The notes beneath the pieces are model-generated. The model was not told where the DNA came from and ran no database searches. It worked only from the letters and a program-made list of their open reading frames with translations. 64,000 nucleotides of DNA. Source: a virus. The position numbers were made by a program, and so were the translations under genes. The stretch lies in IMG/VR virus record IMGVR_UViG_3300022748_000017, positions 1 to 64,000 of that record, one strand, 5' to 3'. Positions 5,220 to 59,641 of the stretch are shown one piece after another (the stretch's first letter is position 1; every line of letters begins with the position of its first letter).

Positions 5220-5228
5220 AGCCAATCC

Positions 5229-5711
5229 TTACAGAACAATCACGCCGTCAGAACGGACGATGAACAACAGGAAAATAATCATGTCATCTGCCGGGACAGA
5301 GCCAACCGCAGGGAAAGATACTTTGACGCGACCAGAATATCCAACAGGATTTTGTGCGTTGATTTCCAGTTCGGGGTCTGTAGACATCAAAGACCAAGCG
5401 CCAGCATCAATCACAAGGGTGCAAGTACCCAAGGCCGTATTGATATTGCTGACAGTCAGAGGAATTGCTGTAGGAGTGGGGCTGTAATCAGCGATGTCAA
5501 ACGTCAACCCGTTGCGGGTATCCACAATGTTTGACAGTTCGCGGCGAACGATTTGAGCATCAATGGTTGCTCCAGTCAAATCGACTGGAAGGCCATTTGA
5601 TGTGAAAGACAGATTCCAATAGGTCTGCTGGTCCCAAACAAGTTCGCCAGCAAGAATAGGATTGTCAAAGCCCGAAACCTGGGCCAAAGTATTGCGATTA
5701 AAGACCGCCAT
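5229..5711 (-). CDS. Virion structural protein, BppU-like fibre attachment/baseplate
   Basis: PVDLTGATIDAQI motif; sits between tail tip and fibre; near-identical in unit B. Confidence 0.55.
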   Translation of the reverse strand: MAVFNRNTLAQVSGFDNPILAGELVWDQQTYWNLSFTSNGLPVDLTGATIDAQIVRRELSNIVDTRNGLTFDIADYSPTPTAIPLTVSNINTALGTCTLVIDAGAWSLMSTDPELEINAQNPVGYSGRVKVSFPAVGSVPADDMIIFLLFIVRSDGVIVL

Positions 5712-5780
5712 GTCAGTTCCCTGCACACAGTTAGAACATCCGTGATTCCCACGGGCGAATGCTGTCTTGTTTTAGCGATT

Positions 5781-8700
5781 TTATACCTTGTTTTCCAATG
5801 CAGCAATTCTTTCTTCAAGCTGCTGAATGGACTTCACCAAAGCCGCAACGATACCGTCATTGCTGAAAGATTTGTACCCTTCCAGCGGACCTTGCTCAAT
5901 GGTTGTGACCATCGTAGTATCTGTTCCCACGATTTCCTCAACCTCGTTTGCCAAGAAACCATAGGCTTGTTTGTCGCCATAGTGAGCAAACAATTCATGA
6001 TTCCATTTGAATTGGACTGGACGAAGTTTCTTGACGAAATCCAGACCATAAGATAAATCAACGATGTCTTTCTTGAGCCTTGAATCGGAAGTGACGTTGA
6101 TGTTGATGGCAGCAGTATTTGTGCCCATCGTCCATGAGATGGTTCCCGATGCGCCGCCTGTTAATGTTCCACTAAAAGTCACATCTGTGACACCACTGGT
6201 ATTTCCAGAAGTACCAATCAAACGAGCCGTGATATTTGAGCCAGAAAGGTTAACGGCTGACAGCGGAATGCTTGCAGTATTGAATGAGCCGCCAAGCGTC
6301 AAACTTCCACTGGTTGTGACTGTGCCACTTAGCGTCAAGCCATAGACGTTGCCTGTGCCGCTTACGCTGGTAACCGTACCTCCACCACTTCCAGATGGAA
6401 TGGCCCATGTACCATCATTTCGCAAGAAAGTCGTTGTTGATCCAGTTGGGGAAGCAACGGTATAACCACCCCAACTGAATGTTCCAGAATCAATCCTTAA
6501 AGCAAAACCGCCGCCAGTGTTATTACATTCAAGAGCCGAGCCTGTTGAACTTGTGGTGCTGAAGTAACCACCAATTGAATCACCTTCTCCAACAACGCCA
6601 ATGCCGGGACAAGCGACCCCATTTCGACCAACGCCAAGTACACCCACGTTGTATGAACTTGTAAGCGATGCAGAATAACCTACAACCCCACCACGAACTT
6701 TTCCAGAAGCAGCGGAAATGCCATTAGAAAGAGAAGAATAATCAATGCTGTATGAAGTGGAGCCAATCAAAACAGAGAATGATGCTGGATTGCGACCTTC
6801 AAAATATGCATCGCCATCGGTGTTAATGTCGCCCATAAACAATGCATTGCCAGCCGTATCAATGGTGAATTTTGCAACTCCAGACTGAGCGCCAACAATA
6901 CCGTTAGATGTAATGGCGACACCAGAGCCGCCAGTCAGAACGCCAGATGAGTTCCATGTGATTGTTCCTGTTTTAATTCCACCAGATGTAGTTGGAACAA
7001 TCGTGCCGGTCAAAACGCTTGTTGATGTCTTGCTCACCTTATCAGCAACATCAATAGTCAGGCCATCAATCTCGCCTTGAAGGAAAGCCACATTACCAGA
7101 CTCACTGTTGACTGGAGACCATACAAACGCTGTGCTGCTTGAAGACCTTGTGGATTGACCAAGTTCATTACCAACCACATACGCAAAATAATATGTGCCG
7201 CCAGCCAATGTCAAATTGGCAAAGTCGTATGTTGAACCATTGACCGCCGCTGTACCTGCTGGCGCATTGGCAGTAGCCAGAACTTTCCAATCAAAATCAA
7301 GAGGTGAAGATGATGTGGTGTAGTACAACGTGCCATAAGTCACACGACCTGTTGTCGGCACAGTTACACGAACTGTGAATGTGGGGGGCGTGACGTTATA
7401 GTTGTTTGCAACAACCGTAGGGGCAGTCAGTGCGCTGAAATAGATGGCGCTTGGAATGTTGCTATTTGGAACAGGTGTGTACTGCGTGATGTCAAAGTCA
7501 TCATAGACAGCGGCACTGTACTCATTCATCTCAAGACGAGCGCCAAGCGAACCATCAGGCAAAGATGCCTCATTCACTTTGACAACACGGAACAATTTGT
7601 TTGTCCAGCCATAGTCAGAGTTTGTCACGCTAACCACAGCACCAGCATCAACCTGAATGCCGTAGTAAGTTGTGCTGAAGCTGACAATCAAATCTTCGCG
7701 TGACTGCTCAAGAATCCGATTGGCAAGATACTGAGCGCGAACGCTGTCATTCACCAAGTCATAGCTAACACTGTATTTGTTTACAGGCTCATTTGGATAC
7801 AACAGGATTGAAGGTGTTTCCAAATTCACATAATCAGGCTGATCCCTGTTTGCACTATTGGGAAACTTGGCTTCGACTTGATTGATAGATTGCGTGATGT
7901 CTGTAGCACTGACACGAATCTCGCCAATGATGTTGTCATCATCAAAAGAATAAACTGCTGTTTCAGATTTGTTGATGACAGCAGACCATTGACCAGCAGC
8001 GGCGTTGTAAGACATCCAGCTATCGCAACAAGTCATGATCTTGTCGATATTGTTCAACACAGATTGACCAGCATCCAAAACACCATTGATGCGATAACGA
8101 GCTTCAGTCGCAGAACCGCCTCCAGATGGCGTATAAGTTATCAATCCATCAGAATAAGTATTCAATGCAGTTGCTGATGCAGAGTCAACAAATGCAGCAT
8201 CTACAGCACCGCCGTAGTATGGGTTGGTAACGTAGTCATACCAAACATCACCCGGCTTTGCAACACCAGTGCCATTCAAATAATGGCTTGCATGGAATGT
8301 GATTGGGCTGAGACTTGTTGTGCCAGCATCTTGGCTGTAGTTCAGCTTGATGATTGCAAATGCCAATCCATTCATCTGGCGACCAGTAGAAGGCCAACGC
8401 TGTGCAGATGCAATGTCAGAGCCACCCATCACTGTACTTGGAGCCGCAGCGCCGTTCAGAGATGTAATCGTTCCAGTCGCAGATGACTTGTACAGACTGA
8501 TGTACAAATTGCCGCTGATCTTTGTGTCCACGTTAGGCGGTGTCGCCTCATCGCTCAGGCTCACAACTTTTGTCAAATCTGTGGTGTCAAACGTGATTAG
8601 TCGATCCCCATAATAGAACTTGGTTGTATCAAAAGAGAATTGACCATTAGGGCTGATGCAAGACACAGCCATAACATAGTACATGGTCTTTTGGTCTGTC

Positions 8701-8951
8701 GAAAGAACAGCATCAACAAATGTGCCGCCAAGATACGCATCACCATATACAACCGGAATTGCATTCACATTCGATGGCGGAACTTGCTGGCGAACGCCAT
8801 TGTCTTGTTGACCTTGCTGATTCTGACCAAACACACGGGTCACGATCTGAGAAACAGCAAAGTTAATGGCAAAAGCAGCAGCGGTTTGGGCAGCAGAAAA
8901 CGCAGCAACTGCTGTCGAAGTAATTTCCGCAACAATGATTGACCCGACCAT
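5781..8951 (-). CDS. Tail tip/host-specificity protein with C-terminal intramolecular chaperone (peptidase S74-like)
   Basis: IPVVYG motif; C-terminal SDSRLKKDI...GFLANEV...coiled coil. Confidence 0.85.
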   Translation of the reverse strand: MVGSIIVAEITSTAVAAFSAAQTAAAFAINFAVSQIVTRVFGQNQQGQQDNGVRQQVPPSNVNAIPVVYGDAYLGGTFVDAVLSTDQKTMYYVMAVSCISPNGQFSFDTTKFYYGDRLITFDTTDLTKVVSLSDEATPPNVDTKISGNLYISLYKSSATGTITSLNGAAAPSTVMGGSDIASAQRWPSTGRQMNGLAFAIIKLNYSQDAGTTSLSPITFHASHYLNGTGVAKPGDVWYDYVTNPYYGGAVDAAFVDSASATALNTYSDGLITYTPSGGGSATEARYRINGVLDAGQSVLNNIDKIMTCCDSWMSYNAAAGQWSAVINKSETAVYSFDDDNIIGEIRVSATDITQSINQVEAKFPNSANRDQPDYVNLETPSILLYPNEPVNKYSVSYDLVNDSVRAQYLANRILEQSREDLIVSFSTTYYGIQVDAGAVVSVTNSDYGWTNKLFRVVKVNEASLPDGSLGARLEMNEYSAAVYDDFDITQYTPVPNSNIPSAIYFSALTAPTVVANNYNVTPPTFTVRVTVPTTGRVTYGTLYYTTSSSPLDFDWKVLATANAPAGTAAVNGSTYDFANLTLAGGTYYFAYVVGNELGQSTRSSSSTAFVWSPVNSESGNVAFLQGEIDGLTIDVADKVSKTSTSVLTGTIVPTTSGGIKTGTITWNSSGVLTGGSGVAITSNGIVGAQSGVAKFTIDTAGNALFMGDINTDGDAYFEGRNPASFSVLIGSTSYSIDYSSLSNGISAASGKVRGGVVGYSASLTSSYNVGVLGVGRNGVACPGIGVVGEGDSIGGYFSTTSSTGSALECNNTGGGFALRIDSGTFSWGGYTVASPTGSTTTFLRNDGTWAIPSGSGGGTVTSVSGTGNVYGLTLSGTVTTSGSLTLGGSFNTASIPLSAVNLSGSNITARLIGTSGNTSGVTDVTFSGTLTGGASGTISWTMGTNTAAININVTSDSRLKKDIVDLSYGLDFVKKLRPVQFKWNHELFAHYGDKQAYGFLANEVEEIVGTDTTMVTTIEQGPLEGYKSFSNDGIVAALVKSIQQLEERIAALENKV

Positions 8952-8953
8952 TT

Positions 8954-9400
8954 TTATTCCTTCACAAAACTTGCGCCAAATGGCTTGTAGCCACGTTTGC
9001 TGTAATCAATCAATGGGCCGCTTGCAGAGATGCTTGTAATGGCAACATCAATGTCACCAACCTCAAGCATCTTTGTTGCACGCTCATCAAAAGCCTTCCA
9101 CAGCCTTCCACCAACTGTTCCATTACGATGCTCTGGCTCTACCCACCAAAGAAGCTCATGGAGTTCTTTAACCTTTGGGGACCAGATATTGCTTTGTTTG
9201 ATTGCAATGATGGCCCCTCGCATATTGTTATCAATGTAGATGAACCCACGCCCTGCAATGATGCTGAACAAAAGCTCTTCTACATACTTTGGAAAATGAT
9301 TGTGTGGCTGCGCGAGAACTTGAATTGGGTTCTCATAAGCATATGACTCAACAATCTCCAAAAGTCTTGGAATGTCATATCTTGTTGCAAGTCTTATCAT
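8954..9400 (-). CDS. GNAT-like acetyltransferase
   Basis: MIRLAT..DIP start, WWVEPEHRNGTVG acetyl-CoA loop, YSKRGY. Confidence 0.65.
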   Translation of the reverse strand: MIRLATRYDIPRLLEIVESYAYENPIQVLAQPHNHFPKYVEELLFSIIAGRGFIYIDNNMRGAIIAIKQSNIWSPKVKELHELLWWVEPEHRNGTVGGRLWKAFDERATKMLEVGDIDVAITSISASGPLIDYSKRGYKPFGASFVKE

Positions 9401-10075
9401 TTAATATCCATATGTTCCGGGAATGTTTTCGCCAGTTGCAGCCATTGACCCATCATAAGAAGTCGTCGTGTCAGTTGCCTGTGTGTCAGTTTGTGGTGGC
9501 TTACCAAAGTCAAAGTAGGTATTGGCAATCGTAGACACTCTATTCATGCTTATGTCGCCGGGATAGAAAAATTGCCAGCTACTTTGATTGGTTTTTACGC
9601 CTGACAAACGATTCTCAAGGACTCTTCGCATTGAAGAGCAAGCAATTGAACAAGTTGCAACCCTTGTCCGAGCTTGAGTGTTGAAATCTTCCGAAATCGA
9701 AACACTGTTGATGATGCCTTGATAACGCTTGAAGAATTGAGTTGTCGGGCTTGTGATGATTTGGTTGTTGTCATCAAAGAAGCCACGCCAGATTTCAACC
9801 AATGATCCTTTGATGTCGCTACTCAAAATGATCGACACAGCTTCTGGGTTGATGCCAGTGAGGGAAATGGTCATATCATCACTGGTTGCTCTCATGTCAC
9901 GCTGGACATCACCAACAGACAAAAGAATGCCAAGGTTAGTGAATGAGATGCCATCAACCGTGATTGGCGCTGCGGCATTGCAGAATGTATATACAGTCTC
10001 AGCCTTACCGACTGTAAGACGAACAAATTCTGCCTGTCTAATTTGTGGCCCATTAAGGGCCGACATTGCTGTCAT
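9401..10075 (-). CDS. Minor tail/hub protein (gpL/DUF2163-like)
   Basis: Position after the distal tail gene; ISLTGI, VEIWRGF and QFFYPGD motifs. Confidence 0.6.
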   Translation of the reverse strand: MTAMSALNGPQIRQAEFVRLTVGKAETVYTFCNAAAPITVDGISFTNLGILLSVGDVQRDMRATSDDMTISLTGINPEAVSIILSSDIKGSLVEIWRGFFDDNNQIITSPTTQFFKRYQGIINSVSISEDFNTQARTRVATCSIACSSMRRVLENRLSGVKTNQSSWQFFYPGDISMNRVSTIANTYFDFGKPPQTDTQATDTTTSYDGSMAATGENIPGTYGY

Positions 10076-10668
10076 GTGATGTACTCCCGAAAGACAAATG
10101 CATCATCCCAATTGACGAATGCGCCATCCGTCATTGGAGTAAGAGTATACGTTGGGCAACGCTCTGCGACAACCGTGAACGTGCATTCTGTGCCCATGTA
10201 GACAGTCGTCCCAGAACTTGGCGTTCCAATCAGAGGACGGTGAATTGTCACCACAGAGCCAGCCGAATCAGCCGTGATTTTGTAGGTGTAGCCACCAATC
10301 ATGATGAAATCACCAGCCTTGAATGTGCCATTTGAAGTCAGATTCAAAGTCTGTGTATTGGCTGCTGGAGTACCATTCAAGGTTGCAGCCGTAGCCGTAC
10401 CCTGCATCTCCAAGAACCAAGACAGATTGTTGCTATCGAATGTGATGGTTTCAGGCAACTGACGATCTTTGTTGTCAATTGTCTGGATAATTTCTCTGGC
10501 TTGTGGATAGTACAGATAGTTGTGCGGAGTCACGGTGAAAACCCAAGGCACAGCAGTCAGATATTGAGCCACAGTGATGTATCCAGAGCGAGTGACTTGT
10601 TGACCAACCATTCGACGGTTGTTCACAGTCATCGCCTGCTGAATCTCAAAGATTGTTTGGAAACTCAT
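10072..10668 (-). CDS. Putative distal tail protein
   Basis: Immediately downstream of the tape measure gene; highly conserved in unit B. Confidence 0.55.
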   Translation of the reverse strand: MSFQTIFEIQQAMTVNNRRMVGQQVTRSGYITVAQYLTAVPWVFTVTPHNYLYYPQAREIIQTIDNKDRQLPETITFDSNNLSWFLEMQGTATAATLNGTPAANTQTLNLTSNGTFKAGDFIMIGGYTYKITADSAGSVVTIHRPLIGTPSSGTTVYMGTECTFTVVAERCPTYTLTPMTDGAFVNWDDAFVFREYIT

Positions 10669-13127
10669 GCCCTTCTCCCGTTAGAGGCCAATGACTTGTT
10701 TGCATATGTGTTTGCAGCCCAAATGGTGTTTGAGCTTTCCAGCAAACGCTGCTCAAACGACTTGGTATCAATCGCATTGATATATGTATTGTTCACAGTT
10801 GTAGAGCCGCCCATACCAGCAAGTTGGTTGTTTGGAATGATTGTCCCGGCAGATCGTGGAATAAAAAGCTCGGGTCCTTTTTCGCCAACAGGATATGCCG
10901 TCCCAGCATCAACCGGCCCACCAGCAGCATGTCCCGGACCCAATTTAACGCCACTGAAATTCAAAGCATATTGACTTGGATTTGCAGATGCTCCAGCAAA
11001 AAAGCTACCAAGCAGCCCACGCAACAACGTCATGGCTTGCAGCTTCATGTTCATGATGAGCATGTCTTGAATGACACTACGAGTGAAATCCTTGATGCTG
11101 AACTTGCCAGTGCGGACAAAGTTTTCGATGGCAGAAGACATGTTGCTCCATACAGCGTCATACATGCCTTGCATGTACTTAAGCGATTCCATGAACTTCA
11201 GGTTTTCAATACGAGCTTCAGAAACTCCACGCTTTTGCTTCTCGTAGTAATCCTGATCTTCTTTGGAGAGAAGACCATACTCTTCGCTTCGCTTCCATTG
11301 AGCAATCTCTTTTTCAATCTTCAGCTTCTCTTCGGCAATGCTCTTTTCCTTTTCAGTTGCACCAATCATTTCCATCTGGAGATGCAACAAATCAGACTGA
11401 TACTTGACCTCATCTTTTGATGTTTCAGTCTCACGAAATACCTTTAATTTGGCATCAATTTTCTTTTGATTCAATTGATTCTCAAATTCTTCTTGATGAC
11501 GCAATGCAGCAATCTCAGCATCAAGCTCTTGAATAAATCTTTTCTTACGGAGTTCAACACGTTTCTTTTCAGCTTCAGCAACAGCTTCAGAAATTTTGCT
11601 CTGACGCAATTTTTCTGTTTCACCAGCGTACTGATTAAAAGTCTCTTCGTTCTTTTTACGCTCTTCGTTTTTGGCTTGCTCAATTTTTCGAGCAAGCTCC
11701 AGTTCAATCTGCATCTCTTCAGATGCATTAGCCATACGCGCCTTGAACCTTGCGTCTGTCTTTGCCTTCTCAACTTCTTCCGCAATCTTCTTATAGCCAG
11801 CAAGACCGCCAGCTTTATCCCAAAGATTGATTTCCTCCTTGGATGTGCCAACATCTTTTGCTGCATCCGAACGACTACGCAAACGAACAATCTCAAGCAA
11901 AGCCTCTTTTTGATCTTTGAGTGCTTGAAGGTTTTTGAAGTTGCCTTCCTTGAACAAAGCATTGAACAACGTATGTTGCATCATGCTTTCATTCAAAGTA
12001 TCAATCTGCTTTGTCAATGCAGCGATATTTTGCTCAATGGTCGGGCCAGAAAGAGCTTCTTTGGTAGAGTCCCACCAATCGCTAAAAGTCTTTTGCAGGA
12101 AACGCCATTTTTCTTGAAGCATCCCAACGCCACGGGCTTGCTGCTCAAGTTTGGTTGTCAAGGCAATAGAAATCTCTTTTGCGGCCTCTTGAGTCTTTCC
12201 AAGTTTCTCAAGCGATTCAATGTTCTTGTACTGCTCAAGAGTCAAGAAATTCATCTTGTCATTGAGTGACTTTGCCTCAGAAGCTGAGCCACTAAGAGCA
12301 CCAGACAATGCTTTTGCTGCATCAGCACCAGAGATTCCTGCAACCCGAGCATATGTAAGCACAGCACGTTCAGCCGCACCAATGGACTCTTCCGTGAACT
12401 TCCCAGACTCCATTAAGCCCATCAAAGCATCTTTTGCAGTGCTGATTGATGTTCCACTGGCCTGAGCCATTTCTTTGGAAAGGCTGCGCCACTTCTCAAG
12501 AGTTACACCAGAATAGTTGCCAGTCAGCGCAATGGTTTTGTTGAAGTTATCAATCTCTTCATCAGCCTTGTATGCCGCATAAGCAAGCGCAGCAAAGCTA
12601 CCAATGATGCCTCCAAGAGCCAACTTAAATGGAGAGAACAAAGAAAGCACAGCGCGGAAAGCATTGCCAACACCGCCCATCGAATCTTTCAACTGACCAC
12701 CTTGCTGAATGAAGGCAATCATCGCGTTCTGACCGCTGGCAATCTGTGTAAAGAAGTCGGTAAGCTGATATGTCACTTGCAACTTTTGCTGCTCAGACAT
12801 TGCACCACTCATCTTCTTCATGGATGCCGCTTTTGCGTCATAGGCTTTTGCTTCAGCAAGCAACATGTCTTTTGTGTTCTGAGCCGCATACATAAAGCGG
12901 CCCTTGCTGATTTCACGCTCAATCTGCTCGACTTTTGTTAGAGTCTTGCCATAGTCTTCAGTAGCATCTTTGAGCGCAGAAACCTCACGCAAAGCAGCCT
13001 TGGTATCTTTCTCAACTTGATTGGAAAATTCTTTGAATTGTTTTTTGGCAGCGTCAATCCCCGTAACAAGCTCACCGCTGTCAACGCCAAGAACAATGCC
13101 AAGTCTGGCTAGGTATTGAGAAGCCAT
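10665..13127 (-). CDS. Tape measure protein (lambda H-like)
   Basis: QLTDFFTQIASGQ...QQGGQLKD motif, helical composition, GGPV...VGEKGPELF near C-terminus. Confidence 0.9.
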   Translation of the reverse strand: MASQYLARLGIVLGVDSGELVTGIDAAKKQFKEFSNQVEKDTKAALREVSALKDATEDYGKTLTKVEQIEREISKGRFMYAAQNTKDMLLAEAKAYDAKAASMKKMSGAMSEQQKLQVTYQLTDFFTQIASGQNAMIAFIQQGGQLKDSMGGVGNAFRAVLSLFSPFKLALGGIIGSFAALAYAAYKADEEIDNFNKTIALTGNYSGVTLEKWRSLSKEMAQASGTSISTAKDALMGLMESGKFTEESIGAAERAVLTYARVAGISGADAAKALSGALSGSASEAKSLNDKMNFLTLEQYKNIESLEKLGKTQEAAKEISIALTTKLEQQARGVGMLQEKWRFLQKTFSDWWDSTKEALSGPTIEQNIAALTKQIDTLNESMMQHTLFNALFKEGNFKNLQALKDQKEALLEIVRLRSRSDAAKDVGTSKEEINLWDKAGGLAGYKKIAEEVEKAKTDARFKARMANASEEMQIELELARKIEQAKNEERKKNEETFNQYAGETEKLRQSKISEAVAEAEKKRVELRKKRFIQELDAEIAALRHQEEFENQLNQKKIDAKLKVFRETETSKDEVKYQSDLLHLQMEMIGATEKEKSIAEEKLKIEKEIAQWKRSEEYGLLSKEDQDYYEKQKRGVSEARIENLKFMESLKYMQGMYDAVWSNMSSAIENFVRTGKFSIKDFTRSVIQDMLIMNMKLQAMTLLRGLLGSFFAGASANPSQYALNFSGVKLGPGHAAGGPVDAGTAYPVGEKGPELFIPRSAGTIIPNNQLAGMGGSTTVNNTYINAIDTKSFEQRLLESSNTIWAANTYANKSLASNGRRA

Positions 13128-14638: not shown

Positions 14639-15187
14639 TTATTCTATTAAAAATTGATTGTGTTTTTTTCTGTTTTCTTGTTTTGTGATAATCATAAGAT
14701 TTTCTGGAACATGAAGCCCACAAACCTTATTATTTATCAAAGGAATGATGTGGTCAACTTCAACATCAAATCCATTCTTTCTCATTCTTGACGCCTTTGC
14801 ATAAATTTCTTTAATTGCCTCAAGATTCGCCCAAGATGGAGTGCATGTTTTTTTGTGCGATCTTCTTTTGGCGCAATAAAAGTACGACAACTCGGCATGT
14901 TTTTCTTTATTCAAAGATTCCCAGCTTCTTGCTCTTGATTTGTAGACATCACTATTTTTAGAATAATGATTCTTCTTTTGCTCAAGAACTTTTTGCAAAT
15001 TGTTTGCTTTCCATTGTTTGGCGTTTTGTTTTATTTTTTCTGCATTTTTCTGATAATACAACTTGTCACAAGATTTGCATCTGCTAGACAAACCATATTT
15101 GCCTTGTGGATTTGCAGAAAAACACAAAATTTCTTTTGTCTCTTTGCATGTACCACATTGTTTTTTCAATACAATTGTTTCGCTCAT
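14639..15187 (-). CDS. Free-standing HNH homing endonuclease
   Basis: CxxC zinc motifs, VDHIIPL...VCGLHVPENL...EN..K; AT-rich; absent from unit B; GGAG RBS before MSETI. Confidence 0.85.
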   Translation of the reverse strand: MSETIVLKKQCGTCKETKEILCFSANPQGKYGLSSRCKSCDKLYYQKNAEKIKQNAKQWKANNLQKVLEQKKNHYSKNSDVYKSRARSWESLNKEKHAELSYFYCAKRRSHKKTCTPSWANLEAIKEIYAKASRMRKNGFDVEVDHIIPLINNKVCGLHVPENLMIITKQENRKKHNQFLIE

Positions 15188-15252
15188 TTCGTTCTCCATT
15201 AACGTCATGGGAAGTAAAGCCTCAGTGCGCCAACACTGGGGCTTTGCGCTTT

Positions 15253-15777
15253 TTAAGCGTTGTTCGACCAACCGTAGCTGTTGCCACCAACCGGATGGAT
15301 GGTGAATTCAAATTTACCTTCAGCAGTAGGAGACATGTCCCACTTCAGGCCACCAACGCGACCATTGAAGGCGTATGCCACAGTGTCAGTGCCGTCATAC
15401 ACAGCAACAACATAGGTACGGATGATCGTACCGCTTGTGCCGTCAGCACGCATCAGCAACTGAGCAGGATCAGCAGGGTTCCATGCGGCAGTGATGGTCA
15501 AAGAAGTCACTTGGTTTTGGGTAGTGATCTTTGCACCAGTACGAGCACCAGCAACCGAGTAAGCTGCAAAAGCGTCATCAGAACCGAAGGCGGGGACTGC
15601 TTCCACAGGAATCTGTTCGCCATCAGTGCCAGTGCCGCCAGCAGACGTACCGATAATGTCAGCAACTTGACCTGTCCAAGTACCCAGTTGGGTATCTGTC
15701 AGAGCAGTAGGGTTAGAGCCGGTTTGACACCACAGCGTAGCAACGTAACCGGGCAAGACTTTGTTAATCAGAGCCAT
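15253..15777 (-). CDS. Major tail (tube) protein
   Basis: Position, size, strong RBS, conserved homolog in unit B. Confidence 0.75.
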   Translation of the reverse strand: MALINKVLPGYVATLWCQTGSNPTALTDTQLGTWTGQVADIIGTSAGGTGTDGEQIPVEAVPAFGSDDAFAAYSVAGARTGAKITTQNQVTSLTITAAWNPADPAQLLMRADGTSGTIIRTYVVAVYDGTDTVAYAFNGRVGGLKWDMSPTAEGKFEFTIHPVGGNSYGWSNNA

Positions 15778-15815
15778 TTTGAGCTTCCTTTAAAGAGTTG
15801 AACAATTATCTTGTT

Positions 15816-16235
15816 TTAAGCTGGGATGTCAATGGTGCAATCCAAATAGATTTGCGCCATCTTCTCTTCGTTATTGTAGCTGTTATATAGCCACAAAACA
15901 TCAGCTTTTGCGATGAAGAAACCGTCAGAAGGCGAACCAAACTGACCGCTATATCCATGCAACTGCTGGAGAATTTGATTGGAAATTGTGAATCCATCTT
16001 CAATCTGCTGAGTGAAAATGGAAATCTGAAATGTCGGCCTGTCAATGCCCTTGTTGCCCTTTGTCTGGCCCGTATACACAGGCTGATGGACATCACGCAG
16101 CATCCAAGTAATGAACTTGGGCTGATTGGCAAAGTTCCTGTTGAACGCCGCATACACGGGCACAGGATTGACGATTTGCGTCAGTTGGTACTGAATCGCT
16201 TTACCGTAATCAACGACATTGAGTTGCTGGACCAT
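15816..16235 (-). CDS. Tail terminator/completion protein
   Basis: Position before the tube gene; PTFQISIF motif. Confidence 0.65.
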   Translation of the reverse strand: MVQQLNVVDYGKAIQYQLTQIVNPVPVYAAFNRNFANQPKFITWMLRDVHQPVYTGQTKGNKGIDRPTFQISIFTQQIEDGFTISNQILQQLHGYSGQFGSPSDGFFIAKADVLWLYNSYNNEEKMAQIYLDCTIDIPA

Positions 16236-16580
16236 TTAGACCGCCGTAACTGGATCAGAACGATAGCACATCAACGTCACGCGCATACGGTCATTCGATT
16301 CACGAACATCCGTGATGCGCCAATCGTTACCGCGCCAAGTGATTGAATACGACTGCTGGTTATCAACAATCGTCTTCATGTTCGGAGTGTAGTTCAACGT
16401 GAAATTGACCAAATCCTGATACAGACGATACCTGTCCGCAATCTTCACACTGTTTGCGACATCAGCAACCCTTGCGCGAGTACCAAACCACACCGTTTGC
16501 GTGGTCGATTGCTCACCGAAATCCGACTTTCCAAAAGCCAGATTGTTGATCGTGATGTTCTCAAAACGAGCGATTGTCAT
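16236..16580 (-). CDS. Head closure/head-tail joining protein
   Basis: DFGEQ, ITWRGNDWRITDV motifs; synteny. Confidence 0.75.
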   Translation of the reverse strand: MTIARFENITINNLAFGKSDFGEQSTTQTVWFGTRARVADVANSVKIADRYRLYQDLVNFTLNYTPNMKTIVDNQQSYSITWRGNDWRITDVRESNDRMRVTLMCYRSDPVTAV

Positions 16581-17251
16581 TACATCACCAATGGCTTGTA
16601 TGAACGGAGCAGCGTTGTCACACCAAACGGAATGTCCTTCAGTTTGGTTTCAGTAGCATTTGCACGATTGTTGTACAAGTGCGTGAACAACAGCAGACCA
16701 GCTTGCTTAATCACAGGGTACGTCTGCAACGGGTTCGGAGCAGTGGTGTACTCAACAATGATTGGCGCAGTCATGCTGCTGTTGATGTTGGTCGGCAGAC
16801 TCGACACGATGACCTTGTTGCCGCTTGCATCGTAGTAATACTCAGTGTCGCTGATGACAGTCAGGACAGGAGGCGTTGCATCGCTCCAGAATGCCACACG
16901 ATTGATTTCCACACCAGACAAATCAGGATACTGATTCTGGCTGACTTCAGGAAGGTCAAGGCAAGTTGGAGAAGCCACAAGGCTTTCTGGTCCGTACCAA
17001 ACTCGGTACGTCACAGGGAAAATCGACAGGCCAAGATAATCCTCAATTGCTTGGCGCGTAGCCAGTTCAAGGCTCTTGAGGTATGTATCTTGGCTTTCGT
17101 CTTCAAACAGGTTGATATGCTGTGTAATCTCATCCAGCGTCAGCCAAGGCGTAACCACATCGCGGTCAATCTGCTCAACCTTTGTGTAGTTGAACGGATT
17201 GCGCGTTTGTGCGCCAAACGGCAGACCGGAAAGAGCGTTATCAGCAGCCAT
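16580..17251 (-). CDS. Head-tail adaptor (gp6-like)
   Basis: LTLDEI...IEDYLG; IKQAGLLLFTHLYNNR; PFGVTTLL. Confidence 0.85.
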   Translation of the reverse strand: MAADNALSGLPFGAQTRNPFNYTKVEQIDRDVVTPWLTLDEITQHINLFEDESQDTYLKSLELATRQAIEDYLGLSIFPVTYRVWYGPESLVASPTCLDLPEVSQNQYPDLSGVEINRVAFWSDATPPVLTVISDTEYYYDASGNKVIVSSLPTNINSSMTAPIIVEYTTAPNPLQTYPVIKQAGLLLFTHLYNNRANATETKLKDIPFGVTTLLRSYKPLVM

Positions 17252-17261
17252 ACTTCACCTC

Positions 17262-18278
17262 TTAAGCACTCATACGAGCGCCAGCAAACGGATCACGGAC
17301 AGTAGACACAACACGCTTTTCAGCATAGATGGTCATGAAGCCGGGAGTGGTCTGTTCAAACAATTGAATCGACATTTCCTCATTGTCGCCGATTGTCATG
17401 AAACGAGGCCAGTTTGCCAAATAAATTGGGAAGCTGGTAGACAAATATGGGTTCGGCACAACTTTGAAACCGAACATATAAGCTACAGCACCACCATCGT
17501 CATCACCAGTTTCCACGAACAGCGGCAAACCTTGACCGTCTTTCAGCTTACGCAGAGAGTCAATCATGGAAGGACGAATGTGCCATGCGTTGCCGGGAAG
17601 AGGCCAGTATTGGCTTGGGAAAGCGTTCACGATGTCAACAATGTTGTCATAGGTCACGCCACCGCTGGTTTGTGCAACTGTAGCCAGTGTGTGAATACCA
17701 GCAGTGATTGCAGTGCCAGAAGTGCCATAAGCAGCCTCTGAACCAGACGTATACATGTCCAGACCGCGAAGGCCAGATGTTGCGCCAGTGGAAGTGGTTG
17801 TAGAGCCAGCTTGGTCGTTGTTGATCGCCATCGAAGCACCTTCGATTTGCGAGAATTCCAACATCAGGTCTTCAACCAAAGTGTTTTGCAAGTTGTTCAC
17901 ATCCGACAGAACTGCTGTACGGACGGGAAGCTGTGCAGTCACAGCACGAACGGGCAATTGCCAGATCGAGGTGTTTGTGCCGGGAGTACCAGTGTTATTC
18001 TGAACTGGATAGCCCCAAGGATTCGTTTGATAAGCAGCGTTACCAGTCTTGGCAACGAACTGTTCATCAGAACCGTCAGTTGTCACCACGCGGGCAGCTT
18101 GACGGAAAGGGTTTGCATATCGCAGCGTTGCGAATGCGTCATCAAAGATAACACGACCACCAATACCCGAACCGGAACCAGTCAACGAGGACGCTTCCTT
18201 GAGGTCGATGGAGACTGTGCTGCCTTCTGTATAGGCTTGTTTGATTCCGCTAAGGATTTTCTCGGTGATAGTAGTCAT
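17262..18278 (-). CDS. Second HK97-fold capsid protein (paralog with short N-terminus)
   Basis: Shares KTGNA, RTAxL, GLRGLD, PxQYW, EKR...VRDPFAG with the MCP upstream. Confidence 0.85.
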   Translation of the reverse strand: MTTITEKILSGIKQAYTEGSTVSIDLKEASSLTGSGSGIGGRVIFDDAFATLRYANPFRQAARVVTTDGSDEQFVAKTGNAAYQTNPWGYPVQNNTGTPGTNTSIWQLPVRAVTAQLPVRTAVLSDVNNLQNTLVEDLMLEFSQIEGASMAINNDQAGSTTTSTGATSGLRGLDMYTSGSEAAYGTSGTAITAGIHTLATVAQTSGGVTYDNIVDIVNAFPSQYWPLPGNAWHIRPSMIDSLRKLKDGQGLPLFVETGDDDGGAVAYMFGFKVVPNPYLSTSFPIYLANWPRFMTIGDNEEMSIQLFEQTTPGFMTIYAEKRVVSTVRDPFAGARMSA

Positions 18279-18301
18279 GGCATTTCCTAAAAAAGCGAAT
18301 T

Positions 18302-18326
18302 AAAAAGCGGGGGCCGTAGCCCCCAC
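18302..18326 (-). terminator. Intrinsic terminator between the capsid paralogs
   Basis: GGGGGC-TACG-GCCCCC followed by a T-tract; conserved at 58262-58289. Confidence 0.8.
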
Positions 18327-18331
18327 TTTCA

Positions 18332-19681
18332 TCAGGTTGCTGTACCTGTCGAACGATAGCGAACGCCAGCGAACGGATCGCGCACAGAAGTTGCCAGACG
18401 CTTTTCACCGTAGAAGGTGATGTAGCCGGGCAATGTCTGGTCATAGCGACGAACCAGCATGTTCAGACGGTCGATGATCGTGTGGAAACGCGACCAGTCA
18501 GCGAAGTACGCAGGGTACAGGCTGGTAGTGCCAGCAGAGCCAGTAGTGGCTTGTGCAGGAGCGTCAACGTAGCTGTTAACAACCACATCGAAGCCCAACA
18601 GTTGACCGACGATACCGTCAACCGACAAACCTTCGTTACGGTTGAAGATAGGAGCGCCGTTGTCATCAACCAGACCACGCACTTGCGACAAGAACACGTT
18701 GTTCATCATGATCTTGGCATTGGGGGTCCAATACTGCTGTGGCAGAGCGTAGATGAAGTTAACGATGTCCTTGTAGGTCACGTTACCAGCGCCCACGGTG
18801 TTGGCGTTAGTGGTCAACTGGTCATAGGTGTTCAGGCTATGCAGACCAGTGTTGGAGCCAGTACCGGAAGTACCGAAAGCAGCAGTCGAGTGCGTACCAC
18901 CAGTGTAGGTAGCGTTAGCACCGCCGTACTGATCCAGACCACGCAGACCATCAGCACCACCAGTAGCTACGGTAGTACCGTCACCAGACTGGTCGTTGTT
19001 GGAGATCATGGACTGAGCTTCAGCTTGCGCGAATTCAGCCAGCATGTCATCAACCACGTTGGCTTCCAAGCCGTCGATGTCGTCCAGAGCCGCAGTACGG
19101 ATCGGGAACTGCACGTTGATGTCCTTCAGAACGATTTGCCAGATACTGGTGTTTTCAGTAGTAGCCGAACCGTTGTTCTGGATTGCATAGCCCCACTGAG
19201 CGCCAGCGTTGCCAGTCTTCACACGGAACTGATAGCTGGAACCATCGGTAGCAACGGTGCGAGACACGCCGCGCAGAGGGTTTTCCAGACGCAGAGCGCG
19301 GAACACGGGATCGTAAGCAGTACGACCACCTTTGCCATCACCGCCAGCGGTCAGAGCAGAGGCTTCAGTCATGTACGCAGCCAGTTGCGACTCGTCAGAG
19401 AAAATCTTCAGTTCTTTGTCCACATTGGACTTGCCAGAAGCCATCTCTTTGAGTTGTTCGCGCACCAGACGGTTAACGTCTTGACGAACGCTCTTGGCCT
19501 TCTCTTTGTGGATAGCAGGAGCTTGCACAGAAGCAACTTTGGCTTCCAGAGCAGACACCATTTCGCTGAATTCAGCTTTGACAGCTTCAACAGCAGCGGG
19601 GATAGCAGCTTCAACTGCTTGGATTTTCTCGGCTTGCGAAGCCTCGATAGCATCCAGTTTTTCGATGATTTCTTTAGACAT
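18332..19681 (-). CDS. Major capsid protein, HK97 family, with delta/scaffold N-terminus
   Basis: Follows the prohead protease; ~105-aa coiled-coil leader; HK97-fold motifs. Confidence 0.92.
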   Translation of the reverse strand: MSKEIIEKLDAIEASQAEKIQAVEAAIPAAVEAVKAEFSEMVSALEAKVASVQAPAIHKEKAKSVRQDVNRLVREQLKEMASGKSNVDKELKIFSDESQLAAYMTEASALTAGGDGKGGRTAYDPVFRALRLENPLRGVSRTVATDGSSYQFRVKTGNAGAQWGYAIQNNGSATTENTSIWQIVLKDINVQFPIRTAALDDIDGLEANVVDDMLAEFAQAEAQSMISNNDQSGDGTTVATGGADGLRGLDQYGGANATYTGGTHSTAAFGTSGTGSNTGLHSLNTYDQLTTNANTVGAGNVTYKDIVNFIYALPQQYWTPNAKIMMNNVFLSQVRGLVDDNGAPIFNRNEGLSVDGIVGQLLGFDVVVNSYVDAPAQATTGSAGTTSLYPAYFADWSRFHTIIDRLNMLVRRYDQTLPGYITFYGEKRLATSVRDPFAGVRYRSTGTAT

Positions 19682-19683
19682 GA

Positions 19684-20481
19684 TTAGCCTTTCAAGCGTT
19701 TGTCTAGGAGTTTAAGAAGTTCACGCTGCTCAAGAGCCGCGAGAATTTCGGCGGTTGCCTCCACATCAGAATCACTCTGAATAGGCGCAGTTTCAGCAGA
19801 TTCACCAACGGCATCACGCTGTTCGATCACCTGCTTGAATACAGATGCGGCGGCAACCGACATCTGTTTGGACAGACCTGCATCCCGCAGGGCTTCTTCC
19901 AATACCTTCAAATCAGCAGAGCCATCTGGACGGAAATACTCCAGCTTCTTCACTTCTGCTTTGGGGTTGTTTGGATGCATCACAACGCTGGTCTCGCGCA
20001 GACCACCTTTGGTGATTTGGAAGTAACCATCTTCGTAAACATTGTCCGAGCCAACAGTCATCGGTGTGCCATCTTCTTTGACCCACTGATATTCGTCAGC
20101 ATAAGCACCAACAGAAACGCCACCAAACATGTTTGGCGATTCGCTCATGACTTGATAAAGGTCCGAACCACTTGTGGTGTTCAGGAACAAACGACCACTG
20201 GCATTCATGCCATCATCGTCCATTTCAAGAGAGGTCCATTCACCAACAGGAATCTGGTCCGAGTTGTGATTAACGTACATTGGGAGAGGACGGCCCGATG
20301 CGGCAAATTCCTTTGCCCATTCCATAAATCCTTCTGGCTTGTAGAAGAACTTACGACCATCAGCGCCTTCGCGTGCGCCCCAAGTAGTGATACGAGCTTC
20401 AATCTTTCCTGTCGGTTCGCCGCTTGCGGCCTTTTCGGACAGGTTCAGTTTTGCTTCGCAGATGAGATTGATTTGCTTCAT
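19684..20481 (-). CDS. HK97-type prohead protease
   Basis: PMYVNH...PVGEW, GGVSVG, LRETSVVMHPNN. Confidence 0.9.
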   Translation of the reverse strand: MKQINLICEAKLNLSEKAASGEPTGKIEARITTWGAREGADGRKFFYKPEGFMEWAKEFAASGRPLPMYVNHNSDQIPVGEWTSLEMDDDGMNASGRLFLNTTSGSDLYQVMSESPNMFGGVSVGAYADEYQWVKEDGTPMTVGSDNVYEDGYFQITKGGLRETSVVMHPNNPKAEVKKLEYFRPDGSADLKVLEEALRDAGLSKQMSVAAASVFKQVIEQRDAVGESAETAPIQSDSDVEATAEILAALEQRELLKLLDKRLKG

Positions 20482-20614
20482 TGATTGCCCCTAAACCAAT
20501 TGACTGGTTGTTGTCTTGTATTTTAGGGGGTTGCCCTTGTAATACAGGCAACGGTGTCTTAGGTCTAATGACCTGTTTTGCCAATGCTACCAGATATTTT
20601 GAATCAGTACGCAT
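20399..20614 (-). CDS. Small ORF between portal and protease (uncertain)
   Basis: Positional homolog at 60360-60566 sharing GxPPKIxD. Confidence 0.35.
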   Translation of the reverse strand: MRTDSKYLVALAKQVIRPKTPLPVLQGQPPKIQDNNQSIGLGAINEANQSHLRSKTEPVRKGRKRRTDRKD

Positions 20615-20620
20615 TTTTTA

Positions 20621-22018
20621 TCAAGTCTTCCCGATATTCATTTTCTTGGTCTGATTTCCACCACCACCGCCTGTATCCTGCTTACTGCTGCCGGGAGTTG
20701 GTTCGGCTGCTTTGGCATCTTTGACCAGTTCATCAGCACCTTCTTTGTTCGCCATGCCCATGTATTCACGGGCTTCGTTCGGTGTCATGATGCCATTAGT
20801 CACGCCAGCGGTGACAAAGTTCATCTGATCCAAAGGCGCACCTTTCAGGAAGTCCTTGGTGTCAAATTCGATGCTCAGAGATGGATAGCCGGGGAACAAG
20901 TGATCGGCAAGTTTCTCTTGCGCGTTCACAATGACCGGATACATAGCCGATTTATAAAACTCGTCCATTGCAGTCTGGCTGTTATTGAATTTGCCGTCAT
21001 GGATGCCAATCATGGAAGGTGGTACGCCAAACAGACCGCAGATTCGGCGCATTGTCTGGAGTTTCAGGGCAGCAGCATCAGCATCTTGGAGCGTCAGCAT
21101 CTCCAACTTCTGGTACTTCATGCCTTGGTCCAGCAACATGCCTTGACCGGGCTTGGATGGATCAGATTGGCGAGAACCAACCATGTTGCTCCAAGCCTCT
21201 TTCAGACGAGCAGCAATCTCCTTGTACTTGCCATCAGGAATGACCGTATCTGTCACAAACATGCCAGAAGGTTTTGCACCATTTTGCATGACGTAGTTGG
21301 CATACAGGTCGATGTCCTGATCCAAGCCACACAGTTCAGCCATCAACACGCCTTTGTTGAAGCCAGCCGAACCTTGCCATGCCATCTCTTTGCAGTGCAT
21401 GACCTGATGCGCTTTCAGAGGCTGGTCTTTGCTGAAACCATAGGAAGGAGTCGAAAGACGATAGCTCGGATAGCGGGTAGGTGTAATCGTGACTGCAATC
21501 AAAGTTGAGTCAAGAATGTACATCTCCAAAGGAGTCTGAGTCGAACTCTCTTGGTCTTTCCTCCACCACAGAGTAAAGGCTTCGCCAGACAGTTCGTACC
21601 ACATCAGCCATTGATACCAGAACTCATAGCGAGACTGGAAATTGTTTGGCTTGTTCAGGAGCTTGGCAACTTGCTTGGCTTTCGTCTTGTCACGATCACC
21701 AACAATCTTGCTTTTGACAGCATCAACGTAATCGCCTTCCTCTGTCTCGTACATGACACGGATAGGCAACTGCGCCAAAGCCCGAGCTTTAATCGCCACA
21801 CAGGACATGATCGTGCTGTTTCGAGCCAGCATCGACATATCCACAGGCCGACCAGCATTGGTCGTGCTTGCTGTGGTTACATACAGGATTTGGGTATTAA
21901 CTGTCGGGTTTTTGTTGTCGCCTTGATAAACAATGTTGTTACCAAGAGCCGTCTGACCGAACATTGAGTTCGATTCATCAACCTGTTTTTTACCCTTGAA
22001 AATGTCCAAAAGTCCCAT
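20621..22018 (-). CDS. Portal protein, HK97 family
   Basis: PNNFQS, NGAKPSG, ICGLFGVPP, MTPNEAR. Confidence 0.95.
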   Translation of the reverse strand: MGLLDIFKGKKQVDESNSMFGQTALGNNIVYQGDNKNPTVNTQILYVTTASTTNAGRPVDMSMLARNSTIMSCVAIKARALAQLPIRVMYETEEGDYVDAVKSKIVGDRDKTKAKQVAKLLNKPNNFQSRYEFWYQWLMWYELSGEAFTLWWRKDQESSTQTPLEMYILDSTLIAVTITPTRYPSYRLSTPSYGFSKDQPLKAHQVMHCKEMAWQGSAGFNKGVLMAELCGLDQDIDLYANYVMQNGAKPSGMFVTDTVIPDGKYKEIAARLKEAWSNMVGSRQSDPSKPGQGMLLDQGMKYQKLEMLTLQDADAAALKLQTMRRICGLFGVPPSMIGIHDGKFNNSQTAMDEFYKSAMYPVIVNAQEKLADHLFPGYPSLSIEFDTKDFLKGAPLDQMNFVTAGVTNGIMTPNEAREYMGMANKEGADELVKDAKAAEPTPGSSKQDTGGGGGNQTKKMNIGKT

Positions 22019-22042
22019 GATTAGCTCCTATTTGACGACATA

Positions 22043-23722
22043 TTACCATTCAAATGAACGGAATCCAAATGAATCGCTCACAAATACGTTATCCAAATGG
22101 CAGTGCATCGCCATAATCATGGCAATAATACCGTCAACTTTGGCAGATGGGTCTGCTTCGTTCTTTCTGACCTTCACGTTTCCGTTGACATCAATGTAAA
22201 CCTCGCAATTTCCTAGCTGCCAACCAACAAAAGGATTGCCATCATGCTTAATGGCTTTCTTCAGAATCAATTGCTCGGTTGTTTTAGACGGGTTTGATAG
22301 AACCGCCATACCCTGACCGACCTTTTTAACAGGTAAACCGTCAGCATAAAGATTGGCGACAAGAGCCGCAGCGTTATAGGGATCGTATCCAATTTCTTTG
22401 ACTTCATATTTCTCACACTGTTGCTTGATGAACGATTCAATCTCATTCAAGTCAGTCACGTTACCCGGTGTGAGCCTCAAAATGCCACTTTTGTGAGCCT
22501 GTTGGTAGATAGACTTGTAATGGTTCGGCACAAAATCCAATGACTCCTCTGGCAAGAAGAATTGGAACTGCGAATAGAAATCTTCTTCGCCATATCGGTG
22601 CAAAGTAACGACAGCGTTTAAATCTCGCGTGTGCGCCAAGTCAAAACCGATAAATGTTGACTCAGGTTTATCCTGTGGTTTTTCAGCAACAGACTCATCC
22701 CAGAAGCGCCTGTCAACCCATGCGGCATTGGCAGACACATAGATGTTCAATTGTTTGCACAGGAACTCATTCAGGCTGGCTGGCTTGGCAGATGCCTCTT
22801 CAGCCATGTGCTTGATGTGTTCTTTGGTAACTGACACACCTAGCATAGGATTGGCTTTGCCCCAAACTTCAGGATTGCTCCATTCGTCACCGGGGTCGAT
22901 GCTGTACAGCAGTCCAAACCACCTGAAATTGTCAGCAGCAGCACCACGCAAAACCGACCGGAAATGGTTCAAATCCTCGTAGAACTTTGTCTCTTTGGTA
23001 AAGCTGGCAGTGGTCAAATACATCCGCAATGGATTCTTACGAGCGCCCATACCAGAGTGCAACACTTCAATACTGGACCGCTCCACAATCTGGGCAGCTT
23101 CGTCAATCATCGCGACACTAGGGTTTTTACCATCACCGGTTTTTCTGTTCTCACGGGACAGGGCGCGGTAAGTAGAAGTCGAGTCGCCAGCCTTCTTTAG
23201 CTCACTGCGGTAAACAATAAACTTAGCCGCCAGTTCTGCCTTCATGCCTTCGACAATAGCTTTAGACGAATCAAAGCAAATAGACGCTTGGTCACGGTTG
23301 GTAGCCAGAGTAAACACCTCCGCGCCAGCATCGCCAAATTGCAACTCATAAAGCGCAATAATGGACGCTATAGTGGTTTTCCCTGATTTGCGTGGAACAA
23401 ACAAAATGACATCGGTTGTCCACCGAGTGTTCACATCGTTCTTAGCGCGAAAGCCATATATGCCAGCCAGAAACATAATCTGGAACGGCTCAAGCTCAAT
23501 TGCTTTGCCAGCATCTGGACCTTTGACATGTCGGCAGAACCTGACAAACTTCAAAATGTGTTCGGCTTTGTCAGCCACAAATTCGTAGGGCGCATCCTTG
23601 CGTTCAGCCATGTCAAGGAATCGCTGGCAAGCCAGTTTGACATCCTCACACGCTGCTATATCCCCACGAACTACACTAATGGCGTATTGAAACGCTGATT
23701 CAAGCTGTGGCGAATAACTCAT
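22043..23722 (-). CDS. terL: Terminase large subunit
   Basis: Walker A PRKSGKT, Walker B IDEA, KANP, GFDLA, KVDG. Confidence 0.95.
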   Translation of the reverse strand: MSYSPQLESAFQYAISVVRGDIAACEDVKLACQRFLDMAERKDAPYEFVADKAEHILKFVRFCRHVKGPDAGKAIELEPFQIMFLAGIYGFRAKNDVNTRWTTDVILFVPRKSGKTTIASIIALYELQFGDAGAEVFTLATNRDQASICFDSSKAIVEGMKAELAAKFIVYRSELKKAGDSTSTYRALSRENRKTGDGKNPSVAMIDEAAQIVERSSIEVLHSGMGARKNPLRMYLTTASFTKETKFYEDLNHFRSVLRGAAADNFRWFGLLYSIDPGDEWSNPEVWGKANPMLGVSVTKEHIKHMAEEASAKPASLNEFLCKQLNIYVSANAAWVDRRFWDESVAEKPQDKPESTFIGFDLAHTRDLNAVVTLHRYGEEDFYSQFQFFLPEESLDFVPNHYKSIYQQAHKSGILRLTPGNVTDLNEIESFIKQQCEKYEVKEIGYDPYNAAALVANLYADGLPVKKVGQGMAVLSNPSKTTEQLILKKAIKHDGNPFVGWQLGNCEVYIDVNGNVKVRKNEADPSAKVDGIIAMIMAMHCHLDNVFVSDSFGFRSFEW

Positions 23723-39167: not shown

Positions 39168-39351
39168 TTGTAACTTCTTTGTAGATTTGCCATGCCTTTT
39201 GACAAATCAACATGATGGTGTAAATCAATGTGGCCCAAAGGACCAATTCACTAACCTGATACCCAAGCAGTGTCGCAATAGAGACAGTTGCAGGAGGTGC
39301 TACCTTGGCAGTGATAGCAGCAGCAGTTTCAGTAGTCGTTGAATGGTCCAT
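39160..39351 (-). CDS. Putative holin
   Basis: 63 aa, hydrophobic, directly upstream of the endolysin. Confidence 0.7.
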   Translation of the reverse strand: MDHSTTTETAAAITAKVAPPATVSIATLLGYQVSELVLWATLIYTIMLICQKAWQIYKEVTSG

Positions 39352-39362
39352 TTTCTACACGC

Positions 39363-40442: not shown

Positions 40443-40473
40443 TTCTTATCCTATGCAATTCAATGAATATATT

Positions 40474-46172: not shown

Positions 46173-46181
46173 AGCCAATCC

Positions 46182-46664: not shown

Positions 46665-46733
46665 GTCAGTTCCCTGCACACAGTTAGAACACCCATGATT
46701 CCCACGGGACGATGCTGTCTTGTTTTGGTGATT

Positions 46734-49892: not shown

Positions 49893-49894
49893 TT

Positions 49895-55741: not shown

Positions 55742-55783
55742 TTTGAATTTCCTTCAAAAACAGGTTGATGAATTATTATCTTA

Positions 55784-57214: not shown

Positions 57215-57225
57215 TTCGGCTCCTA

Positions 57226-58242: not shown

Positions 58243-58261
58243 GGGTTTTCCTTATTGCTTG

Positions 58262-58289
58262 AAAAAAGGCAGGGGCCGTAGCCCCCGCC
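58262..58289 (-). terminator. Intrinsic terminator between capsid paralogs (unit B)
   Basis: GGCGGGGGC-TACG-GCCCCTGCC followed by TTTTTT. Confidence 0.8.
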
Positions 58290-59639: not shown

Positions 59640-59641
59640 GA

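Follow-up and report, generated by a model that had tools for sequence, protein, structure and literature searches.

A scaffold-less paralog of the major capsid protein as a candidate vertex protein in a clade of freshwater siphophages

Here we describe a pair of capsid genes in a virus record of the IMG/VR database (IMGVR_UViG_3300022748_000017; 75,987 bp in all), of which positions 1 to 64,000 were analysed and are referred to as the window. The stretch 17262-19681 consists of exactly two adjoining minus-strand genes in a standard HK97-type head module: one for a major capsid protein (MCP), named MCP1A, and one for MCP2A, a second protein of the same fold with a much shorter leader. They belong to a series of genes, unit A, in the order large terminase, portal, S78 protease, MCP1A, a 53-nt spacer, MCP2A, gp6-like adaptor and tail genes (Table 1). 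A colinear unit B, ~39.35 kb further on, repeats the layout of MCP1, hairpin and MCP2 with MCP1B and MCP2B. From the comparisons reported below, MCP2 is probably a penton (vertex) protein that would be made in lower amount than MCP1 behind a terminator.

An earlier note on this DNA, made from the sequence alone, had claimed two HK97-fold paralogs per unit, and the open reading frames (ORFs) have the lengths it gave, 449 and 445 aa for MCP1 and 338 aa for either copy of MCP2. All four lie well above the 24.2-bit cut-off of PF05065 (Phage_capsid), with 100.1 bits for MCP1A, 79.7 for MCP2A, 100.0 for MCP1B and 65.6 for MCP2B. MCP1A and MCP2A share 41% identity across the 352 columns (E 3e-80) of an alignment that spans the whole mature region and pairs residues 94-441 of MCP1 with residues 16-335 of MCP2, so that MCP2 is without the first ~78 aa of the leader. 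In MCP1 the leader is a helical delta (scaffold) domain of ~105 aa versus ~28 aa in MCP2, as the earlier note had it and as the alignment, predicted helices and upstream frames bear out. The AlphaFold2 (AF2) model of MCP1A (predicted local distance difference test, pLDDT, 80.7) has leader helices at residues 2-51, 65-81 and 97-109 before the N-arm, whereas that of MCP2A (pLDDT 86.9) has a sole helix, 4-18, ahead of it. When a longer leader was sought 5' of the MCP2 start codon (ATG), the frame was open for just 7 codons in unit A and 3 in unit B; MCP2 therefore hides no upstream leader. MCP1, on the other hand, has the features of an HK97-type delta domain, namely a fused helical scaffold of ~100 aa, a protease gene directly upstream and no separate scaffold gene: the stop codon of the S78 protease and the start codon of MCP1A are 2 nt apart, and the junction between the two genes holds no separate scaffold gene.

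Both AF2 models show the HK97 elements in the expected order, and the predicted fold of MCP2 is complete, with N-arm, E-loop, spine helix, A-domain and P-domain hairpin. The top Foldseek matches of the MCP2 model in the PDB were the capsid proteins of RcGTA (E 1.5e-17), Mycofy1, D3 and HK97, to E 1e-15, and the family profile placed the RcGTA capsid protein closest among solved relatives (E 3.5e-44). A single-sequence search of the PDB with MCP2 gave noise only (Fab chains, E above 0.05). Compared with MCP1, MCP2 lacks segments of 9, 8 and 13 aa, each of them in the stretch from the spine helix to the P-domain hairpin. By alignment and model, all three deletions are predicted to fall in the axial (A-) domain, which through them is 31 aa (~18%) shorter than in MCP1. 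Two other explanations for the second frame were rejected, that of a decoration protein because of the complete HK97 fold, and that of an MCP1-MCP2 fusion by read-through or frameshift because the frames differ and stops flank the start of MCP2; MCP1 itself terminates in TGA, with a second TGA immediately after.

The arrangement recurs in relatives. Across ~100 IMG/VR contigs, MCP1 (444-462 aa) lies directly upstream of MCP2 (333-352 aa) in every locus with enough flank, and the pairing holds down to ~55% MCP2 identity. It is demonstrated only to that level because scans with more distant representatives (P0133, P0124 and P0126 against viral contigs, P0133 and P0128 against metagenome contigs) found no matches. 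Among cultured phages, only the siphophage P19250A, which infects LD28 (Methylophilaceae), has close relatives of either protein, and it keeps the gene order: an annotated capsid protein, then a 352-aa 'hypothetical protein' that is MCP2, then the adaptor. In outgroup phages whose MCPs are related, only one MCP gene is present, and the adaptor or a different gene comes next. Prophage-like copies occur in metagenome-assembled genomes labelled Burkholderiaceae, Rhodocyclaceae and Betaproteobacteria. The frequent pseudogenisation in relatives that the earlier note had considered did not appear; the sole broken copy in ~100 loci is that of L055 (5832-6870), where a 32-nt deletion shifts the MCP2 frame, which may reflect a true defective variant or a fault in the assembly. 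Besides, a few relatives (L030:5635-7014, L031:4698-6077 and P0122) carry after the hairpin an extra ORF of ~100 aa (MPKPND...) with no Pfam match, which runs in frame into MCP2 with no stop to give an open frame of 438-459 aa and may represent a moron or else an N-terminal fusion to MCP2.

A library-wide HMMER search returned only 146 clusters (50% identity) at E of at most 0.001. In a quick maximum-likelihood tree of 55 sequences, the MCP2 clade had a support of 100, the MCP1 clade of 95 and their sister relation of 88. As MCP1 and MCP2 form separate sister clades, the duplication is old and internal to the lineage; the earlier note, according to which it predates the split of units A and B, had thus understated its age. 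All members of the MCP2 clade start with a short leader and lack a delta domain, even those with only 39-47% identity to MCP2A. Those of 416-438 aa are long for other reasons, P0122 having been called together with the inserted upstream ORF and P0123, P0129, P0134, P0135 and P0136 carrying the internal insertions described below. The phylogeny and the ratio of nonsynonymous to synonymous substitution rates (dN/dS) were analyses that the earlier note had suggested. With a median pairwise dN/dS of 0.09 for MCP2 and 0.125 for MCP1 (339 genome pairs), MCP2 is under strong purifying selection, and the duplicate has been maintained, as had been claimed.

Two side observations concern the same tree. 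Inserted domains of ~75-85 aa lie in the E-loop of P0123 and just after the spine helix of P0129, P0134, P0135 and P0136; a search for Pfam matches to them found none, and they may be surface modules displayed on putative pentons. In addition, MCP1B joins MCP1A, whereas MCP2B joins L036 and not MCP2A, and the synonymous divergence (dS) between the units is 0.90 for MCP1 versus 1.62 for MCP2, a pattern that points to recombination between MCP1 and MCP2, perhaps in the spacer.

Where the leader meets the N-arm, all four proteins of the window share the motif hydrophobic-x-E-A-S-x-L-T, a putative maturation site that reads EASSLT in MCP2A and EASALT in the other three. The earlier note had placed E-A-S-[AS]-L-T at this very position, and among the long frames of the window we found it in these four proteins only, plus one loose chance match. 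It is kept by MCP1 and MCP2 alike in each of the 62 distinct genomes, the residue two places ahead of the Glu being hydrophobic, and rare variants occur in both paralogs of one phage (AGLQ in P19250A, EAAGL in L057). In L057, synonymous differences between the motif copies of MCP1 and MCP2 speak against a recent gene conversion, while in P19250A a 20-nt identical run between the paralogs leaves conversion possible. Agreement of the motif within genomes exceeded that of shuffled MCP1/MCP2 pairings, in a test inflated by shared ancestry. The longest modelled chain of the RcGTA capsid protein comprises 297 of 386 residues and, if its C-terminus is complete, would thus start within 1-2 residues of the aligned motif, which lends weak support to a proposed cut at E|A.

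The earlier note had further reported a C(UACG)G terminator-like hairpin between the two genes, and we observed it in both units (Table 1). In unit A it folds with a free energy (dG) of -26.7 kcal/mol (z -4.2). All 49 distinct short MCP1-MCP2 spacers of relatives contain a GC-rich hairpin, and since its stems are of 27 different sequences, it is conserved as a structure and not as a sequence. At least four T follow within 8 nt of the GC stem in 40 of the 49. Given its form, a GC-rich stem-loop with a U-run behind it on the transcribed strand, the element is a putative intrinsic terminator or 3' mRNA stabiliser, a call that rests on fold energy and conservation and not on a simple terminator scan. 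As to the Shine-Dalgarno-like AGGAAA of MCP2A, TTTAGGAA was found again in the spacers of most relatives.

Sequencing depth over this region showed some unevenness. In two RNA runs, short unitigs over the 5' ~640 nt of MCP1A (19050-19694) had 4-8 times the k-mer depth of the flanking contigs (857-1253 vs 151-193 and 166-231 vs 31-41), the rise over the same region in a DNA run being at most 1.4-fold (543-700 vs 499-543). In a third RNA run, of low coverage, MCP1 contigs had a depth of ~10-12 and MCP2 contigs of ~3. Contig depths cannot rank genes, and these contrasts are not counted as evidence here.

Table 1. Features of the two head modules in the window (coordinates are window positions)
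Feature	Position	Strand	Basis or remark
Large terminase	22043-23722		First in the order of unit A
Portal protein	20621..22018	-	PF04860, E 4.9e-61
Prohead serine protease (S78)	19684..20481	-	PF04586, E 6.4e-9; PHROG head maturation protease
MCP1A, major capsid protein, 449 aa	18332..19681	-	ORF; PF05065, E 1.9e-28
EASALT of MCP1A (E106 to T111), putative maturation site	19349..19366	-	Leader/N-arm boundary
Hairpin GGGGGC-UACG-GCCCCC (extendable stem) + U-run, unit A	~18302..18330	-	Sequence, fold
Shine-Dalgarno-like AGGAAA of MCP2A	18283..18288	-	Sequence reading
MCP2A, scaffold-less HK97-fold paralog, 338 aa	17262..18278	-	ORF; PF05065, E 3.2e-22
EASSLT of MCP2A (E28 to T33), putative maturation site	18180..18197	-	Leader/N-arm boundary
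gp6-like head-tail adaptor	16580..17251	-	Directly 3' of MCP2A; PF05135, PHROG 40 and 442
MCP1B, 445 aa	58302..59639	-	ORF; PF05065, E 2e-28
Hairpin GGCGGGGGC-UACG-GCCCCUGCC + U6, unit B	~58262..58289	-	z -2.85
MCP2B, 338 aa	57226..58242	-	ORF; PF05065, E 6e-18; 65% identical to MCP2A

Paralogy, fold, loss of the leader, shared motif, hairpin, synteny and selection are all established here, and MCP2 is almost certainly a functional protein of the capsid shell. As to its place in that shell, the few tailed phages in which cryo-EM has revealed pentons made of a second HK97-fold protein offer a guide. In T4, gene 23 is followed by gene 24, and the protease cleaves behind a Glu that stands in the context L/I-x-E, which resembles the hydrophobic-x-E|A motif described above. 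There, gp23 forms the hexons and gp24, thought to stem from a duplication of the gp23 gene, the pentons, and the prohead protease removes 65 aa from the former versus 10 aa from the latter (PMC9958956). T4 thus resembles the present pair in its long hexon and short vertex propeptides, both of them protease-cut in T4, yet this large myophage has a prolate head (T=13/20), a scaffold core that is separate and an MCP of another family, and gp23 and gp24 are only ~20% identical versus 41% for MCP1A and MCP2A.

Closer in scale are two siphophages. In the c2-like Lactococcus phage Nocturne116, ORF18 is a fusion of protease, scaffold and MCP, and the adjacent downstream ORF19 is a shorter HK97-fold vertex protein (VP) without scaffold that forms only the 11 pentamers (J Virol 2026, PMC13595954). 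This small siphophage shares with our pair the paralog directly downstream, the scaffold on the MCP only and the shorter VP, whose A-domain tip loop is shortened much as the A-domain of MCP2 is predicted to be smaller. Its head, however, is prolate (Tend=4, Tmid=8) with isopeptide chainmail, and its VP has almost no N-arm, a small E-loop and ~24% identity to its MCP, whereas here the protease gene is separate and neither N-arm nor E-loop has been lost from MCP2, whose ~28-aa leader has the motif of MCP1. In the Mycobacterium abscessus phage Jabs, ORF72 (MCPh, 594 aa, N-arm near residue 271) forms the hexons and the adjoining ORF73 (MCPp, 257 aa, with a reduced axial domain) the pentons (bioRxiv 10.64898/2026.07.24.740622). 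Jabs, too, is a siphophage with a long hexon gene followed by a short penton gene of reduced axial domain, and its head is isometric and has no cement proteins; it differs in its larger T=9 head, its disulfide cross-linked shell and its actinobacterial host. Finally, HK97 gp5 and the RcGTA capsid protein are like MCP1 in their fused delta scaffold, the S78 protease directly upstream and the lack of a separate scaffold gene, but there one protein makes hexons and pentons and no second MCP gene exists. In view of the two siphophages, the background given in the earlier note, HK97 with one MCP and T4 with its gp24 paralog, is out of date.

Set beside these systems, MCP2 has what marks a dedicated-penton gene, being a paralog of the phage's own MCP, located directly downstream of it and equipped with a short propeptide in place of the scaffold, in both units and ~100 loci. 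Adjacency 3' of the MCP, scaffold loss, shared motif and an axial domain predicted to be smaller recall the precedents and are the grounds for a penton reading; of the three roles that might be considered, vertex protein, portal-proximal capsomer and size determinant, the first appears to fit best. The lineages of T4, the c2-like phages and Jabs are unrelated to this one, and we therefore take the duplication to be independent of theirs. The pair is most likely a new, independently evolved case of the known type of dedicated HK97-fold penton paralog.

If so, MCP2 would go back to a tandem duplication of the major capsid gene and have specialised as a second shell protein of the virion, with MCP1 forming the hexons and MCP2 the 11 non-portal pentons. 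MCP1 would bring the only scaffold, an HK97-style delta domain, and drive procapsid assembly, while MCP2, having lost the coiled-coil part of that domain, might be unable to nucleate shells alone and would be recruited to the vertex positions of the MCP1 lattice. The adjacent S78 protease could then trim both proteins at hydrophobic-x-E|A-S-x-L-T, taking ~105 aa off MCP1 and ~28 aa off MCP2. The hairpin, through termination or through stabilisation of the MCP1 3' end, would lower the MCP2 mRNA relative to that of MCP1 and so may keep the level of MCP2 several-fold below that of MCP1, in the direction of the 360:55 expected of a T=7 head, a T number that we infer from the genome size of ~39 kb. 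The proposal in its full form, that is, a dedicated penton that arose by a duplication of its own in freshwater, T=7-size siphophages of Betaproteobacteria, with a propeptide cut by the shared protease, a dose set by the hairpin and surface domains in some lineages, is in our view evenly poised between right and wrong.

Several points weigh against the penton reading. In most HK97-like phages a single protein makes both pentons and hexons, so geometry does not demand a second MCP. MCP2 has an N-arm of full length and an E-loop that exceeds the one in MCP1 by 3 aa, which confines the structural signature of a penton specialist to the smaller A-domain. The hairpin was absent from the output of the simple terminator scan, whose total was no higher than in shuffled controls; we think that the hairpin was missed since its stem can extend into the U-run. 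L029 has no MCP1-MCP2 spacer at all, and three relatives have inserts of 340-570 nt between the genes, located after the hairpin, so a ratio fixed by a terminator is not universal. The three metatranscriptome runs hold the region as contigs with one depth each, which cannot give transcript levels, nor do contigs that bridge MCP1 and MCP2 demonstrate one transcript. Presence in the virion, location in pentamers, cleavage, stoichiometry and T number are all conclusions that we infer from the comparisons above.

A rival reading is that of a shell protein that is no penton specialist, and MCP2 might instead enter mixed hexamers, occupy particular hexon positions, for instance near the portal or beside pentons, or tune the size or stability of the head. 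Fold, position in the head module, selection and shared motif apply equally to such a role, and the full N-arm and E-loop are those of a hexon subunit; a two-component HK97-fold encapsulin shell of variable composition has been described (PMC11071501). However, all three solved second HK97-fold shell paralogs of tailed phages are used for pentons only, our literature searches turned up no tailed phage with mixed MCP hexamers, and the smaller A-domain and apparent lower expression would suit a low-copy vertex. We therefore regard a role in the shell other than that of a penton as unlikely, if the best of the alternatives.

Less probable still is a function outside the virion, be it as an assembly chaperone or checkpoint that departs from the prohead, as a decoy for host capsid sensors or as a poison of the assembly of competing phages. 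The missing scaffold could bar MCP2 from shells, and the retained protease-site-like motif would allow for its degradation after use. Yet purifying selection is uniform over the HK97 fold (E-loop, P-domain and interfaces) and at least as strong as that on MCP1, the domains inserted in the MCP2 clade (in the E-loop of P0123 and the A-domains of P0129, P0134, P0135 and P0136) read as typical of surface-exposed shell proteins, and the isolate P19250A has retained the MCP2 gene between MCP and adaptor. That MCP2 is a decaying or redundant duplicate behind a plain operon terminator, for which one could cite the frame-breaking deletion of L055 (one of ~100 relatives) and the fact that hairpins commonly follow capsid genes of high expression, is close to refuted by the selection data (dN/dS ~0.09, with frames intact at all other loci) and runs counter to a monophyletic MCP2 clade that reaches to ~40% identity, and the hairpin can be no full stop because the downstream connector and tail genes need transcription.

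Regarding the record as a whole, it is made of two phage genomes, colinear and related yet distinct, that follow each other head to tail at an offset of ~39,349 bp; they may be tandem prophages, or else the assembly may be chimeric or concatenated. Nucleotide identity between the units is 92% for 1-1116 vs 39350-40465, 84% in the tail region (2958-10847 vs 43713-51779) and 69% in the head region (15253-23156 vs 55217-63099); a search of the window for tRNA genes found none. The tail genes of unit A include one for an 820-aa protein of tape-measure size and, at 14639-15271 (minus strand), an endonuclease VII/HNH-like ORF (PHROG 1035). The 10.8-15.3 kb around this ORF has no nucleotide match in unit B, and a strong terminator-like hairpin lies on the opposite strand inside its 5' end (15214-15247, plus strand). 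Numerous internal repeats of 65-74% nucleotide identity at 3784-5051 and 44599-46073 fall inside the ORFs 2547-5225 and 43614-46178, which probably encode repetitive tail-fibre-like proteins.

Dedicated penton paralogs were long known only from T4, the two small siphophages having been reported only in 2026, and one of the 2026 reports called the dedicated-penton strategy unprecedented among icosahedral phages. The same gene pattern is now seen in a large, environmentally common and nearly uncultured freshwater clade with a genome of T=7 size, whose one cultured member is P19250A on its LD28 Methylophilaceae host. Should the penton reading of MCP2 be true, protease, MCP1 and MCP2 would make a simple system in which to study how vertices receive a subunit that lacks a scaffold, and in such genomes the label of vertex protein could replace that of 'hypothetical protein' for the gene product after the MCP. 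Specialisation of hexons and pentons would then have evolved repeatedly and be a recurrent trait of small tailed phages rather than a peculiarity of T4.

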